From a virus (taxonomy: Duplodnaviria > Heunggongvirae > Uroviricota > Caudoviricetes), in IMG/VR virus record IMGVR_UViG_2675903417_000002, positions 1 through 36,620 of that record: DNA of 36,620 nt; one strand, written 5' to 3'. The notes below the pieces were generated by a model. That model did no database searches, was not told the origin of the DNA, and was given only the letters and a program-made list of their open reading frames with translations. The position numbers and the translations under genes were made by a program. The stretch's first letter is position 1; each line of letters opens with the position of its first letter. This document shows, one piece after another, positions 1-4,536 of this stretch.

Positions 1-228
1 CAATTAAAACAGCAAGTTATCAGTCTAAACAGAACACCAACGGGATGGAGGAGAGACAAAAAATATCCAATGAAACCGTAGCGCGTCAGCATTCAAAAGC
101 GGGGTTTCTTATTTTTACTTCACCAGTAACAAATACACTGTATCATAACTACATAAAAATGATTGTTCTGACTCAGATGAATTTCTTACTCTTGTAGAAT
201 GTCACTTAATGTTATTTATAGGTAAACA

Positions 229-2118
229 ATGAAATCCGAAACGCTAACCATCCAGCAAATTTTCCAAAATCAACGACAATATCGTGTTCCATTCTATCAA
301 CGTGCCTACGTATGGACGCAACGAAACCAATGGTCAGCTTTGCTGGAGGATATCTTCGAAAAAGCACAGAGCCGACTTTCGGGAACAAAACCAACCCCTC
401 ATTTCCTCGGCGCGGTGGTGCTGGAACCTCAACTCAAAAACAGCTTGTTAGGTGTAGATACCATACATATTATTGACGGCCAGCAACGTTTAACCACTCT
501 TCAATATATTCTGGCATCCATTCGATTATCATTGCGTGCTACAGGCCTTTCTGAACTGGAAGGGTTAGTATTGACTTGCTTGAAAAATACAAACGAAGCA
601 ACGATGAGAAATAAAAAGGTAGAATGCTTCAAACTGTGGCCAACTTTTCGAGATCAAACTCATTTTATTCAAAGTCTTAATGTTGATAATATTGACGATC
701 TCCGTAATGTATTTTCTGATAGCTTCACGCAACATGGTACGTTACGTAAACATTTCAACCACCCGCCGTCACTAGAGGCATTATGGTTTTTTACTGAAGC
801 CTTTATAAAATGGATTAAAATAGAAAACCGCTCACCACAAGAAAATGCTGTAGCACTAATTGAGGCTGTCTTGACGGATCTGAAACTGGTAAGCATATTT
901 CTCGAAGCTGAAGATGATGCCCAAATAATTTTTGAAACATTAAATGGGCGAGGAGCGGAACTTCATGCAACGGATCTTATTCGCAACTATATCTTTATGT
1001 GCGCTGAGCATGAAAATATTAATACTATTGAATTATATGAAAATGAGTGGAAGATCTTTGAAGATAAATACTGGTCGGAAAAGCAACGCCGTGGACGTAT
1101 TAATAAACCACGCATGGAGTGGCTTGTACATGCGACATTGCAATCAGAAAGGCAGCGTGAAATTGATCTGTCTCGCCTTTACAATGAGTATCGTGATTAT
1201 GTAAGTAAGGACTTGCCTTCACAACGAGCAGATCTGCAAGTAAAGCGCCTCAAACAATATGCATCACAATATAAAGAATTGGTTGGTGGTTTTGGCACAA
1301 CCCCCATCTCACACTTTGGACATCGCATCGCAGCCTATGATGTGACGACACTCTATCCGCTTGCTTTGTTCATTTCGATAGCTAACATCGCCGATGATGA
1401 GAAAGCAGCCATGTATAATGATCTTGTCTCCTACGTAGTACGAAGAGCCGTATGTGGCCTGACGCCAAAGAATTACAACAATGTATTTATGAATGTATTG
1501 CGACACTTGTCTAAAACGGAAATTTCCAGTATTGAGTTACGTAATATCCTCAATAGCTTAAATGGCGAAGCCTCACGTTGGCCTGGGGACTCAGAATTTC
1601 TCAACGCTTGCATCAATGCTCCACTTTATCCTGGCAGGCTCGACGCACCGAAAATGCGCTCAATGTTAACGGAACTTGAAAGAGAACTTTGTCGCCAAGT
1701 GAAGACAGAAAAGCCTGATGTTCCAAATCTTTCTAATCTCGATATCGATCATCTTATGCCTCAAAGTTGGTATTCCTGTTGGCCTCTCGAAAATGGTCAT
1801 ATGGTGACAAATTCAGATGCTACGGTAATGAACCAAATTGTTCTGTCTGGAACCGATCTTACCCCTGAACAGCTACTGGTAAGGAAACGGCAACAAGCGA
1901 TAGCTACGTTGGGAAATCTAACTTTGCTTAACCTTAGCGTAAACCGTTCCGTTCAGAATGCTGTATTTCTGAAAAAACGTGATGCTCTCATCGTCCACAC
2001 CAATCTACGACTGAACATACCACTTATACTTAAGGATAAATGGGATGAGAGTGAAATACTGGAGCGAGGTAAAAAGTTGGGGGAAATTGCATTGAAAGTA
2101 TGGCCAAAATACGATTAA
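229..2118 (+). CDS. GmrSD-family (DUF262 + DUF1524) type IV restriction endonuclease-like defence protein
   Basis: 629-aa ORF; N-terminal DUF262 motifs (VPFYQRAYVW, IIDGQQRLTTL at nt 475-489) and C-terminal DUF1524 His-Me finger-like motif (DIDHLMPQSW at nt 1741-1770); AGGT RBS before ATG 229; AT-rich relative to the phage structural genes. Confidence 0.7.
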   Translation: MKSETLTIQQIFQNQRQYRVPFYQRAYVWTQRNQWSALLEDIFEKAQSRLSGTKPTPHFLGAVVLEPQLKNSLLGVDTIHIIDGQQRLTTLQYILASIRLSLRATGLSELEGLVLTCLKNTNEATMRNKKVECFKLWPTFRDQTHFIQSLNVDNIDDLRNVFSDSFTQHGTLRKHFNHPPSLEALWFFTEAFIKWIKIENRSPQENAVALIEAVLTDLKLVSIFLEAEDDAQIIFETLNGRGAELHATDLIRNYIFMCAEHENINTIELYENEWKIFEDKYWSEKQRRGRINKPRMEWLVHATLQSERQREIDLSRLYNEYRDYVSKDLPSQRADLQVKRLKQYASQYKELVGGFGTTPISHFGHRIAAYDVTTLYPLALFISIANIADDEKAAMYNDLVSYVVRRAVCGLTPKNYNNVFMNVLRHLSKTEISSIELRNILNSLNGEASRWPGDSEFLNACINAPLYPGRLDAPKMRSMLTELERELCRQVKTEKPDVPNLSNLDIDHLMPQSWYSCWPLENGHMVTNSDATVMNQIVLSGTDLTPEQLLVRKRQQAIATLGNLTLLNLSVNRSVQNAVFLKKRDALIVHTNLRLNIPLILKDKWDESEILERGKKLGEIALKVWPKYD

Positions 2119-2140
2119 TGCAATTAATAAAATGATTATA

Positions 2141-2164
2141 GCGGCCTTACATTAGTAAGGCCGC
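2141..2164. terminator. Stem-loop (9-bp stem gcggcctta/taaggccgc, 6-nt loop) between the convergent defence gene and invertase remnant
   Basis: Perfect inverted repeat read directly; A/T-rich flank on the minus-strand side; no clean T-tract on the plus side. Confidence 0.45.
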
Positions 2165-2343
2165 TACTCACTATTAAATCCTTTAATTTGCATCAAGAAC
2201 AGCACTGTCAGCCCTAGGCTCTCGGACTTTGTACCGCTTATCTTGTCTTCAAAAATCAGCTCGCATCCTGCACAGTTCAACGCATTACGTTGTAGATCTG
2301 TGTTCTGGTCATTTATTGATACGCGTACATAGCCAATAAGCAT
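2164..2343 (-). pseudogene. pin: Degenerate remnant of a Gin/Pin/Hin-family serine DNA invertase (N-terminal ~42 aa conserved, then divergence and stop)
   Basis: Translation MLIGYVRVSINDQNTDLQRNALNCAGCELIFEDKISGT matches the invertase N-terminus including the catalytic Ser region, but the ORF stops after 59 codons where ~185-190 aa is expected; ATG at 2341-2343. Confidence 0.7.
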
Positions 2344-2397
2344 AGTGGATCCCTCTGACAAAAGCAGGAATGATGCCATTTGCTCGTTATTTCTGCA

Positions 2398-2423
2398 TTT
2401 TCATAAACGTTGGTTTGGGAGAA
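2398..2423. other. Left hix/gix-like 26-bp recombination site of the invertible tail-fibre segment
   Basis: Reverse complement reads TTCTCCCAAACC-AA-CGTTTATGAAAA; shares a 16-bp identical core with the site at 4234-4259 in inverted orientation; AAACC-NN-GGTTT-type core as in hix/gix sites. Confidence 0.65.
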
Positions 2424-2948
2424 GGCTCTGCATTACCTGTTGGTGTCCCTGTTCCGTGGCCTTCAGCCACTCCGCCAACAGGCTGGCTGAAATGCAACGG
2501 AGCAGCTTTTTCTGCTGAAGAATACCCGGAACTGGCAAAGGCTTACCCGACAAATAAATTGCCAGATTTACGTGGTGAGTTTATTCGTGGCTGGGATGAC
2601 GGGCGTGGTGTGGATGCGGGACGTGCCTTGCTAAGTCTTCAGGATGACTCTTTTGAAGCGCACAGGCATGAGTCCTTTTTTTACGCGGGTATTTCTCGCA
2701 ATGAAATACCATTAAAAAATCTTCCAAGTTCAGACGAGATGCTGACTTTAAGTTCTACAACTAATGCCTTGTCCCCGGACGGTATTGATGCCACTAATTC
2801 GTTAATTGGTAATGATGATTACAACTGTCTGATTGAAGGAAATAAAAATAACAAACGAACAGCGACGGGGTTGAGCACCAGTATTGTCGGTGCAGCAGAG
2901 ACCCGTCCACGTAATATTTCATTTAATTACATTGTGAGGGCTGCATGA
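2411..2948 (+). CDS. Alternative (currently unfused) tail-fibre C-terminal variable segment
   Basis: ORF 2370..2948 carries the GLGEG crossover-encoded peptide then a tail-fibre/collar-like C-terminus; sits inside the invertible segment in opposite orientation to the expressed fibre gene. Confidence 0.55.
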
Positions 2949-3550
2949 TGTATAACGCCATCTTAAATAATAAATTTATTGCCACAAAGGCAGGAGAGAT
3001 TACCGTTTATAACTATGACAGTGAGACACGGGAGTATATTTCTGCATCAACTGAATATCTTGCTGTGGGTGTCGGTATCCCTGCATATTCCTGTTTAGAT
3101 GCTCCTGACACACATAAGGTTGGTTATGCAATCTGCCGTTCGGCAGATTTAAACTCATGGGAATATGTGCCAGACCATCGCGGTGAAGTTGTCTATAACA
3201 CCGAAACGGGAGAATCAAAAGAAATCACAGCTCCGGGTGATTACCCTGAAAATACAACCACTATCGTCCCGTTAACGCCATACGATAAATGGGATGGTGA
3301 GAAATGGGTGACAGATACTGAGGCACAGCATAGTGCCGCAGTAGACGCGGCAGAAGCACAGCGCCAGTCGCTGATTGATGCTGCAATGGCTTCCATCAGT
3401 CTGATTCAACTGAAATTACAGGCCGGGCGGAAGCTGACGCAGGCAGAAACAACCCGATTTAACGCCGTGCTGGATTACATTGACGCGGTGACGGTAACAG
3501 ATACCAGCACCACGCCGGATGTCATCTGGCCTGAACTGCCGGAGGCGTAG
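2945..3550 (+). CDS. Tail fibre assembly protein (partner of the alternative fibre C-terminus)
   Basis: 201-aa ORF starting [25 protein letters not shown], typical Tfa N-terminus; overlaps preceding ORF by 4 nt. Confidence 0.7.
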
Positions 3551-3950
3551 GCCATTCAATATCGGGTGCTGTTGAAGTATCAACACGCATCAGCAGCACA
3601 CGGTATTTCTTCCATTCGGTGAGAGTTGAAGTTTCTTCATCAGTTGCGATATCAGCATCAACAGCATCCTGACGCCAGGATATTTCACTGTCAGCTTTTT
3701 CCCGTAATTGGGATTTTTTAACTTCAGCAATAGCTATTAATTCCTTTTTGGTCGGCTGAGGAATATCTATCAGTGCTGGTTTTCCATTCAGTGTTCCAAT
3801 CTGTTTTCCTGGTGGAATATCCGTAAATAACTTTTTATGTTCTTCCTCACTGACTATTACACCATCATCAGGCCACAGACCTGATGCCTCAAATTTTTCT
3901 TTCTCCGATATGGGGAAAAAGCCATTTGCTTTAGCGCTCCATACGTACAT
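3522..3950 (-). CDS. Tail fibre assembly protein (partner of the expressed fibre)
   Basis: 142-aa ORF directly downstream of the expressed tail-fibre gene; Tfa-like sequence; convergent with the other Tfa as in Mu G / e14 P segments. Confidence 0.7.
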
Positions 3951-3951
3951 A

Positions 3952-4536
3952 TCAATACCCCACCGCTATAATGTCCACATTAAATCCCCCGGGACCTGCC
4001 TGCCAGATGCTGGCCCCTGTTAATGATTTTGTTTGATGAACAACCGCCACATTTGCTGGCGATTGTGTTTCAGTTGTTACAGTACCGATATCATTCCAGT
4101 TAATTGAGATGGAATAGTTCGTTGTTGTAAACGACCGGGGGAAAGTTATGTGTCTTACATTGGTGCCGACAGGAAATCCAAGATAAACACGCTGAATTAT
4201 CATTCCTCCAGGTAACATAACCCAGTTAGCACCTTCTCCCAAACCAAGGTTTTCGAGAGCTGTTTTCACCGTGCCATCCGATTTGATATCGCCAAACGGA
4301 TTCTTGCGGCTTAACAGCAGCGCACGAAGCGCGGTAAGCAGCTGGTCATGCCGCCCCTTCTCCAGGCTGGCACCGGATGCCTCCACAACGCTGCAAAGCT
4401 CCTCCTGCAACATGTCAAAGTAGTCATCATCCAGATCGGTGGCAGGCGTGCCGGTCTGGGGGTTACCACGGGTAAAACCGTTCTTACCCGCGCCGAACTT
4501 ATCCTTCTGCGCGGTTTTCGTGTCTATACGATGCAT
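3952..4536 (-). CDS. Short side tail fibre protein (constant N-terminus fused to the current variable C-terminus)
   Basis: 194-aa ORF; crossover site falls at the NLGLGEG codons; follows the baseplate genes. Confidence 0.7.
4234..4259. other. Right hix/gix-like 26-bp recombination site inside the expressed tail-fibre gene
   Basis: TTCTCCCAAACC-AA-GGTTTTCGAGAG on the plus strand; inverted copy of the site at 2398-2423. Confidence 0.65.

Follow-up and report, generated by a model that had tools for sequence, protein, structure and literature searches.

The window, by which we mean the whole 36,620-nucleotide stretch of DNA analyzed here, encodes near its left end what is, judged by its sequence, the restriction enzyme GmrSD itself and not merely a GmrSD-like protein. 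We put at about 0.88 the probability that this gene is an allele of gmrSD serving as accessory cargo in a myovirus-type prophage of the SfII/e14 family, at its attR-proximal end, with the mechanism, history and consequence proposed below. The enzyme is already known and biochemically characterized and its location in a prophage is already published, and novelty is limited to some detail of the genomic setting. Two earlier papers noted gmrSD in a prophage beside tail-fiber and invertase genes (PMC4437046, PMC4619093). Neither mentions the icd/e14 site, a truncation of pin or an equivalence with mcrA, and nowhere does PMC4437046 use the words "e14," "icd" or "invertase."

The gmrSD gene (229..2118, plus strand) opens with an ATG and encodes a single-chain type IV modification-dependent restriction endonuclease of 629 amino acids. 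The first-pass annotation had reported a 629-residue DUF262/DUF1524 protein with DGQQR and DHxxP motifs, and both motifs are present: DGQQR at residues 83 to 87, within an N-terminal DUF262/ParB-like (ParB/Srx-like) NTPase domain, and DHLMP at residues 507 to 511, within a C-terminal DUF1524 His-Me/HNH nuclease domain. The profile search that it proposed gave strong Pfam matches to GmrSD_N (PF03235, residues 8 to 256, 2.1e-33) and GmrSD_C (PF07510, residues 451 to 619, 3.8e-19), and the PADLOC mREase_IV model PDLC03655 covered 629 of 629 positions at 1515 bits. NCBIfam profiles returned no match, and a sequence search of the PDB returned only a weak one over the N-terminal domain (9jfl, 1.8e-7), an entry deposited as "DUF262 domain-containing protein." When a phage collection was searched with the protein by tblastn, the only matches had less than 31% identity and lay in Gram-positive phages; none of the sequenced free phages in that collection carries gmrSD.

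Compared with the reference sequences in Suppl. Fig. S1 of PMC4437046, the window protein is identical at 624 of 629 positions (99.2%) to Eco94GmrSD (WP_000834395, E. coli STEC_94C), at 624 of 629 (99.2%) to the resequenced GmrSD of CT596, the family prototype, and at 584 of 629 (92.8%) to UTI89_C2960. The five substitutions relative to Eco94 (R201H, T266A, R316H, A407S, I435V) are scattered and conservative. Eco94 and CT596 GmrSD, also 629 amino acids long, share with the window protein the DGQQR, ExEx4ExK and D507-H508-N522 motifs, and their setting is alike, an SfII-like prophage in which the gene lies directly downstream of the tail-fiber genes with a phage invertase adjoining. Alanine mutants of D507, H508 and N522 lack endonuclease activity (PMC4437046), and all three residues are retained in the window protein. 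It is on these proven catalytic residues and the 99.2% match to the prototype enzymes that our identification as GmrSD rests; the label "GmrSD-like" thus named the right family but undercalled a known enzyme. A more distant relative is BrxU, likewise a single-chain DUF262 plus DUF1524 protein that is stimulated by NTPs and cleaves modified-cytosine DNA. BrxU is borne on plasmids or islands (the BREX island) whereas the window gene is prophage-borne, it additionally acts on 5mC, and no BrxU structure was matched in the PDB search.

For the mechanism that we propose, we rely on experimental work with the Eco94 and CT596 enzymes, each 99.2% identical to the window protein (PMC4437046). The single chain would recognize DNA containing glucosyl-5-hydroxymethylcytosine or 5-hydroxymethylcytosine, its stimulation by NTPs would go through the DUF262 domain at the N terminus, and the C-terminal His-Me nuclease (D507-H508-N522) would carry out cleavage. 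A lysogen would be expected to exclude T-even phages unless a matching inhibitor, such as IPI* of T4, is injected along with the phage DNA; T4 delta-ip1 was restricted more than 1e6-fold in the published work (PMC4437046). The five substitutions could alter activity or inhibitor sensitivity.

An alternative hypothesis is that the window enzyme belongs to the GmrSD family but has another target, such as a different hypermodified base or, like BrxU, 5mC, in which case the T4/IPI* picture would be inapplicable. Substrate range does vary within the family: the UTI89 enzyme spares both T4 and T4 ip1-, is insensitive to IPI*, is inactive in vitro and differs in phage range (PMC4437046), and BrxU cuts 5mC. 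Alleles of gmrSD are moreover mosaic across codons 1 to 130, where the UT type is strongly diverged (dS of ~0.87, versus ~0.05 in the C-terminal half). The window protein, however, is of the CT596/Eco94 type throughout, and none of its five substitutions falls within the motif residues mutated in PMC4437046 (E271/E273/E278/K280 and D507/H508/N522), so that we regard a different target as unlikely. Still less probable is that gmrSD survives only as a relic, silent or decaying, of a dead prophage and has no part in defense. The neighboring pin is a pseudogene, and insertion sequences lie by the block in some relatives (IS2 adjoins it in locus L006, and in L005 the gene has been lost to IS903B). 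Against decay, all six loci compared, which come from four contexts, keep the 629-codon reading frame at full length (92.8 to 99.8% amino acid identity), with dN/dS of ~0.18 in the three comparisons for which it could be computed (L006, L015, L016). Elsewhere in the window the set of phage genes looks complete, its morphogenesis genes 97% identical to those of SfII, SfI, SfIV and two induced E. coli phages, and the original exclusion phenotype came from the prophage copy in CT596 (PMC4437046).

We return to gmrSD as an intact allele carried as cargo, and to the block that contains it. An AT-rich character had been claimed for this block, and GC content is indeed 0.35 to 0.45 across positions 1 to 2400, compared with 0.53 to 0.62 from ~4200 onward. 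Its upstream part (1..228, plus strand; GC 0.35) holds a promoter-like site (119-146, plus strand; a TTCACC-16-TATCAT match) and an unsupported open reading frame of 50 amino acids (45-197, plus strand) that has no Pfam match. This frame was considered as a partner of gmrSD and rejected, as it has no domain match and lies partly outside the block held in common with L006. A hairpin with a 13-bp stem (2138..2167), found by a scan for terminator-like structures, sits between the convergent genes and is likely a terminator; it is within the cargo block, with the homology break to its right, at 2208. The block common to other chromosomal contexts begins at window positions 8 to 58.

The attR site is not in the window, and the icd location was therefore inferred from genomes 99% identical to it. 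In one of these (NZ_CM149554), attR lies ~645 bp to the left of what is position 1 here. The earlier placement of the gene at the prophage end consequently holds in that it is attR-proximal, but the true end is not inside the window. In the near-identical genomes an SfII/e14-like prophage occupies icd, with the gene order iraM, icd 3' fragment, DUF262 gene, truncated recombinase, tail-fiber genes, ymfQ and baseplate genes. Three such loci (L001, L002 and L007, all 99% identical) have the duplicated icd 3' fragment (icdC) at attR beside iraM, and ymfQ, stf/tfa and pin at the same end. Where K-12 e14 has the 3' part of pinE and mcrA, these genomes have a 2.85-kb AT-rich block, and homology to e14 is lost at window position 2208 on one side and, on the other, 7 bp into the att core.

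Convergent with gmrSD, and separated from it by the 45 bp already claimed for that interval (between the stop codons at 2118 and 2164), lies a pseudogene of the DNA invertase gene pin (2164..2343, minus strand), its start at 2343 contained within an open reading frame at 2164..2379 (minus strand). Some 41 to 45 genuine N-terminal codons, in line with the ~42 first estimated, give way to unrelated ones that end in a stop. Residues 1 to 41 are those of K-12 PinE except at position 10 (I10/T10), the catalytic-serine motif YVRVS is kept, and the remnant matches the Resolvase N-terminal domain (3.3e-8). It stops after 59 codons, against ~184 to 190 amino acids in intact Din-family invertases; about three quarters of the gene is gone, and the product has neither a complete catalytic domain nor the C-terminal helix-turn-helix of a Din invertase. 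In RefSeq its equivalent is recorded as "recombinase family protein, incomplete, missing C-terminus," and tblastn with PinE found no second Pin-like gene within the window. The possibility that the remnant is a functional small protein was rejected, for the copies in L005 and L006 are frameshifted by a 1-nt deletion. The junction (2208..2222), where similarity to intact pinE ends and which bounds the inserted or replacing block on the right, was mapped by blastn against K-12 e14 and phage pro483 together with alignment. DNA similarity to e14 pinE is solid to ~nt 122 and stops at window position 2208 (pinE nt 136), which agrees with a junction predicted near 2215-2222. The identical junction is found in loci L006, L007, L015 and L016.

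Among 5426 complete E. coli genomes, ~295 carry the block together with the truncated pin, and its chromosomal positions number at least four (icd, tRNA-Pro, ssrA and a retron-adjacent site). Since only at least ~55 of these 295 genomes have the GmrSD block joined to icdC, with others at tRNA-Pro, at ssrA or beside the retron, the block is tied to the tail-fiber end of the phage rather than to icd. The UT-type gene UTI89_C2960 fits this pattern: it shares the 629-residue architecture, the truncated-pin neighbor and the prophage-end position of the window gene, and differs from it in lying at integration sites elsewhere (tRNA-Pro, ssrA). No gmrSD beside an intact pin was seen in 8 sampled genomes of the 295 or in 6 fetched loci, all of which had pin truncated. 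From these genome comparisons we infer the history of the replacement. An AT-rich block of ~2.1 to 2.85 kb (promoter, gmrSD and hairpin) would have replaced the interval from pin codon ~42-46 to the att core, which in e14 holds the rest of pinE and mcrA. As the same junction recurs at icd, tRNA-Pro, ssrA and the retron-adjacent site in 295 of 5426 genomes, the replacement was probably a single event, after which recombination has probably carried the module of gmrSD, truncated pin and tail-fiber genes from one related prophage to another, across several integration sites.

At icd, the interval next to attR has been filled in other ways. K-12 e14 has the order pinE-mcrA-icdC, an arrangement present in 329 genomes, which bears out the earlier statement that mcrA takes the equivalent position in e14; in the near-identical genomes the prophage is at this same icd site. 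Like gmrSD, mcrA of the cryptic prophage e14 is a type IV modification-dependent gene of the HNH type between pin and attR(icdC). McrA itself is an unrelated protein (277 amino acids, with a different recognition domain), mcrA is co-directional with an intact pinE whereas gmrSD converges on a truncated pin, and the two cargo blocks have no DNA similarity. In a further 289 genomes, an AAA_5 ATPase and McrC (PF10117), a McrBC-like pair, are joined to icdC. McrA, the McrBC-like pair and GmrSD are each found in ~5% of complete E. coli genomes. Across the 10 sampled loci of our survey of slot contents, different and unrelated defense genes thus occupy this one flanked position from strain to strain, and non-defense cargo (umuDC, sitABCD) also lies before attR at icd. 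The suggestion of a conserved defense-cargo hotspot is borne out as far as three type IV systems are concerned but not in the sense of defense alone: this icd interval ahead of attR is a slot for cargo in general, and type IV restriction genes are often what it holds. A literature search for a defense hotspot at e14/icd found nothing relevant.

To the right of the junction lies an invertible P-like segment of ~1.84 kb (2411..4246). Its left crossover site, or pix (2398..2423), is part of an inverted repeat with the sequence that PMC12529663 quotes for the e14 P-segment repeats, and its right one (4234..4259) agrees both with the repeat and with the flip boundaries in L007; the repeat (2405-2425 and 4232-4252) is 21 nt long and 95% complementary. 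From their reading frames and domains, the segment includes a currently silent tail-fiber C-terminus with a collar domain (2370..2948, plus strand), tail-fiber assembly genes at 2945..3550 (plus strand) and 3522..3950 (minus strand), and an alternative C-terminus, currently expressed, in the distal part of 3952..4536 (minus strand). In the Din-family switches (Pin/e14 P, Gin/Mu G and Hin), as here, 26-bp inverted crossover sites flank alternative tail-fiber ends. In those switches the enhancer region is at the start of the invertase gene; that of hin, 65 bp in length, is situated ~100 bp from hix in the N-terminal coding region (PMC3798978, PMC2724282). By position, the retained 5' part of pin should contain such a Fis enhancer, and two G-N13-C sites (2308-2322 and 2259-2273), 49 bp apart from center to center and the first of them 95.5 bp from the pix center, delimit a putative Fis-dependent recombinational enhancer there (2259..2322, minus strand). 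Unlike in the known switches, the window's resident invertase gene is destroyed, which would leave an orphan switch dependent on an invertase elsewhere.

Both orientations of the segment occur beside the GmrSD/truncated-pin flank, five genomes being arranged as the window is and five flipped. For this reason the segment is probably flipped by another invertase encoded elsewhere in the cell. The resident invertase is dead, but the two crossover sites are still there, and so is the 5' stretch of pin predicted to carry the enhancer; these would serve invertases acting in trans, as PinQ and PinR do on the e14 P segment (PMC12529663). The two orientations could in principle stem instead from homologous exchange between prophages, with the segment itself frozen and the block recombining into prophages whose segments already faced different ways. 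That the block moves from one prophage background to another is clear, and fits such a history. Yet L001 and L007 are both at icd, have identical GmrSD and tail-fiber assembly protein accessions and differ by a clean inversion of the segment, the flip in L007 mapping exactly to the arms at 2405-4252; only ~200 bp of homology separate junction and pix, leaving little room for exchange, and trans inversion by PinQ/PinR was an experimental result (PMC12529663). We consider a frozen segment improbable. A much closer call is whether the retained piece of pin has any cis-acting role or is a chance endpoint of deletion. It diverges at about the surrounding rate and carries frameshifts in some copies, as would be expected of chance, and we give that reading somewhat less than even odds. 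The retained 136 bp, on the other side, span the whole predicted enhancer (2259-2322) with margin, and both orientations persist. The Keio delta-pinE strain, from which the whole frame is gone, is reported to be locked despite pinQ and pinR (PMC12529663), which speaks for a cis-acting role as well, but loss of PinE itself explains that result too.

A bolder extension of the favored reading is that the pin-attP interval of SfII/e14-type phages is a dedicated, exchangeable type IV slot, and that the gmrSD cassette travels with a deliberately retained, enhancer-keeping pin stub, the orphan switch surviving through the invertases of other prophages. We offer this tentatively and think it rather more likely to be wrong than right.

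In the arms race of T4-like phages with E. coli, GmrSD is a textbook case, and PADLOC and similar tools already detect it. What is added here is genomic context: the prototype gmrSD lies in the icd-site slot that holds mcrA in K-12 and a McrBC-like system in other strains, which makes this slot a concrete and easily surveyed locus in which to look for more modification-dependent nucleases. Cassette and pin scar are common to prophages at four or more chromosomal sites, and a host-range inversion switch can, on this evidence, outlive its own recombinase. Such an orphan switch would bear on the prediction of tail-fiber expression in these prophages and on the reading of recent claims that P-segment inversion affects phage adsorption.

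The open reading frame at window 229..2118 (+ strand, ATG start) encodes a 629-aa protein in which residues 83-87 read DGQQR and residues 507-511 read DHLMP. As the first-pass annotation had anticipated from these motifs, the DUF262 and DUF1524 profiles both match it (Pfam GmrSD_N PF03235, 2.1e-33; GmrSD_C PF07510, 3.8e-19). The PADLOC type IV restriction model PDLC03655 matched 629/629 positions at 1515 bits, indicating a REBASE enzyme as its identity. Supplementary Fig. S1 of He et al. (PMC4437046) gives the sequences of Eco94GmrSD, resequenced single-chain CT596 GmrSD and UTI89_C2960, and these references were rebuilt from it. The window protein is identical at 624/629 residues to Eco94GmrSD, at 624/629 to CT596 GmrSD (the family's founding member) and at 584/629 to the UTI89 enzyme. 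It keeps D507, H508 and N522, the three catalytic residues; changing them to alanine abolishes endonuclease activity (PMC4437046). Given this near-identity and the conserved catalytic residues, we identify the gene by sequence as gmrSD itself. At 99.2% identity, its product is predicted to work as published for GmrSD: the enzyme cleaves DNA containing glucosyl-5hmC or 5hmC, is NTP stimulated, and, when the injected inhibitor IPI* is missing, restricts T4 >1e6-fold, but wild-type T4 only weakly (PMC4437046). The literature already describes the enzyme and its activity, on an SfII-like or curable prophage, with tail fiber genes and a phage invertase as neighbors (PMC4437046; PMC4619093 citing Bair et al. 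2007). The finding is correct, but the gene was already known. The block is AT rich, as had been noted: G+C is 35-45% over the first 2.4 kb and 53-62% from ~4200 on, where the phage structural genes lie.

Convergent with gmrSD is the remnant of a pin-type invertase gene (- strand; pin start at 2343, open reading frame end at 2164), which matches the Resolvase N-terminal domain (Pfam) and whose residues 1-41 equal K-12 PinE except for one substitution. The predicted 45-bp gap between the two stop codons is present, and a hairpin with a 13-bp stem (2138-2167) lies between the genes. All features listed in the first-pass annotation are found at the positions it gave. Alignment with related prophages, the proposed means of mapping the junction, gives this result: the tail fiber region, the pix crossover site and pinE nucleotides 1-136 match e14 up to window 2208, with identity to pinE solid as far as ~nt 122 (alignment A1). 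The pin stub carries a 1-nt deletion at two loci.

The window's first 5.2 kb is 98.9% identical to E. coli chromosomes that carry iraM, an icd 3' fragment, the DUF262 gene, a truncated "recombinase family protein," tail fiber and assembly genes, ymfQ and baseplate genes. By this synteny, the gmrSD prophage in these chromosomes sits at the attachment site of the e14 cryptic prophage, which in K-12 reads ymfQ, stfP, tfaP, tfaE, stfE, pinE, mcrA, icdC, iraM. On the host side, iraM and icdC resemble K-12 and homology ends 7 bp inside the e14 end. Between the two breaks lie 2852 bp in the gmrSD prophage versus 1584 bp in K-12, the latter comprising pinE codons 46-184 and mcrA. Because the same breaks bracket the gmrSD block here and the pinE 3' part plus mcrA in K-12, the claim that mcrA occupies the equivalent position is literally true. 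The gene was also said to occupy the prophage end; its location is end-proximal, and the end itself lies just beyond the window, with ~645 bp of the block left of window position 1. That stretch, from att core to window start in the icd locus of strain MEI148-20EC (L001 7356-8000), holds two small open reading frames of ~50 aa each and ~11 copies of an 8-bp tandem repeat, CCCACCAA. On the attR side (L001 7349-7362 compared to the K-12 locus, L003 6400-6413), similarity is undetectable past ~7 bp inside the att core, so K-12 e14 and the gmrSD prophage would appear to have no common attP arm there, reflecting either integrases with different arm sites or cargo replacement extending to the core. 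For the rest of its genes, the window shares 97% identity with the morphogenesis genes of Shigella phages SfII, SfI and SfIV and of two induced E. coli phages.

We sampled a small set of 10 loci from genomes where an icd fragment comes after iraM, the sign of a resident prophage. In three, an AAA_5 ATPase (651 aa) and a McrC-family protein (357 aa) adjoin attR next to icdC (L010 1222-4295; L009 1226-4299; L011 1222-4295), an arrangement found before attR in 289/5426 complete genomes. By sequence family the pair is a McrBC-like type IV system; PADLOC made no McrBC call on it. The count for K-12-type pinE-mcrA-icdC is 329 genomes, which include many laboratory derivatives. Among the samples, umuDC-like genes come after an intact recombinase in one genome, and three genomes have sitABCD, in a prophage of a different kind. 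Since such unrelated genes fill the attR-proximal interval, this end of icd prophages is, across the 10 loci, a cargo slot, where three mutually unrelated type IV restriction systems occur fairly often, along with nondefense cargo. The proposed "conserved defense-cargo hotspot" thus stands as to the restriction systems and not as to exclusive defense, given the umuDC-like and sitABCD cargo.

At least 80% of window 1-2400 is present in 295/5426 complete E. coli genomes, and the block joins icdC in only about 55. Among the carriers sampled, none has an intact invertase beside gmrSD: all eight (99.9% to 91.9% identity) run through the junction and are annotated with DUF262 and a truncated recombinase. 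The same block (window 8-58 to past 2416), with the same junction, occurs in three contexts besides icd: a degraded prophage at tRNA-Pro/yejM, an SfII-type prophage at ssrA, and a prophage with different baseplate genes adjoining retron Ec67 and an integrase. In the last (strain TUM17668, L015 303-3892), the block directly adjoins an Ec67-family reverse transcriptase/endonuclease and a tyrosine integrase, by appearance a small multisystem defense cluster. At ssrA (L016 1402-4221), a LEM-3-like GIY-YIG domain gene, two hypotheticals and a DinI-like pseudogene precede it; the pseudogene also lies upstream at tRNA-Pro (L006). GmrSD is intact at six of six loci (629 aa, 92.8-99.8% identity), with dN/dS ~0.18 (computed for three relatives, L006, L015 and L016). 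In strain 2024CK-00535 (L005 6001-7171), all that is left of the cargo block is 37 bp, which, with the pin stub, borders IS903B next to a type I restriction-modification operon; gmrSD appears to have been lost through IS903B. The simplest reading is that one ancestral replacement produced the junction; the gmrSD/truncated-pin/tail fiber module would then have dispersed among related prophages through recombination, with selection retaining gmrSD and not pin.

Alleles of gmrSD are themselves mosaic. CT-type and UT-type alleles diverge mainly in codons 1-130 (window 229-618, compared with L006 5107-5496 and L016 4607-4996). Because dS against UTI89-type alleles is 0.86-0.88 in codons 1-130 and 0.03-0.07 in codons 261-629, the comparison suggests that the N-terminal segment was exchanged from a diverged source. 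The swapped segment may underlie the reported CT/UT difference in IPI* sensitivity, or set phage range.

Beyond the pin stub, inverted repeats at 2405-2425 and 4232-4252 (the pix crossover arms) have the sequences given for the crossover repeats of the e14 P segment (PMC12529663). They enclose ~1.84 kb with two alternative tail fiber C termini, the silent one with a collar domain (2370-2948), and two assembly genes. The fiber gene expressed in window orientation (3952-4536) encodes 194 aa without the collar domain; in flipped genomes the fiber is 275 aa. When the flipped segment was built in silico and searched in complete genomes, five matched over its full length (100% coverage, 97.5-98.2% identity), pin stub and gmrSD 3' end included; five have the window orientation. 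LST200A (L007, also at icd) and MEI148-20EC share the icd site, the GmrSD accession and the assembly-protein accessions, and differ by inversion of the segment exactly at the arms, from which we infer that the segment inverted after pin was destroyed. The acting invertase must be encoded elsewhere, since the window encodes no second Pin-like protein; PinQ and PinR, encoded in other cryptic prophages, have been demonstrated to invert the e14 P segment in trans (PMC12529663). Two G-N13-C motifs (2308-2322 and 2259-2273), both within the retained 136 bp of pin, are candidate Fis-enhancer sites. Din-family inversion requires a Fis-bound enhancer. In hin, this 65-bp element lies within the codons for the N terminus, ~100 bp from hix (PMC3798978, PMC2724282); the putative sites in the stub are similar in spacing and position, lying 49 bp apart with the first 95.5 bp from the pix center. 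That the stub was nonetheless kept by accident, and not for the putative enhancer, is a serious possibility, if somewhat short of an even chance.

The accessible GmrSD literature yielded no description of the icd/e14 site of gmrSD and its equivalence with mcrA, of the exact pin truncation that recurs at several att sites across hundreds of genomes, of the orphan yet apparently still active inversion switch or of the McrBC-like alternative cargo, and our literature search found none of the icd-prophage cargo slot. The site, the pin truncation, the orphan switch and the alternative cargo are useful context for gmrSD, not a new kind of system.
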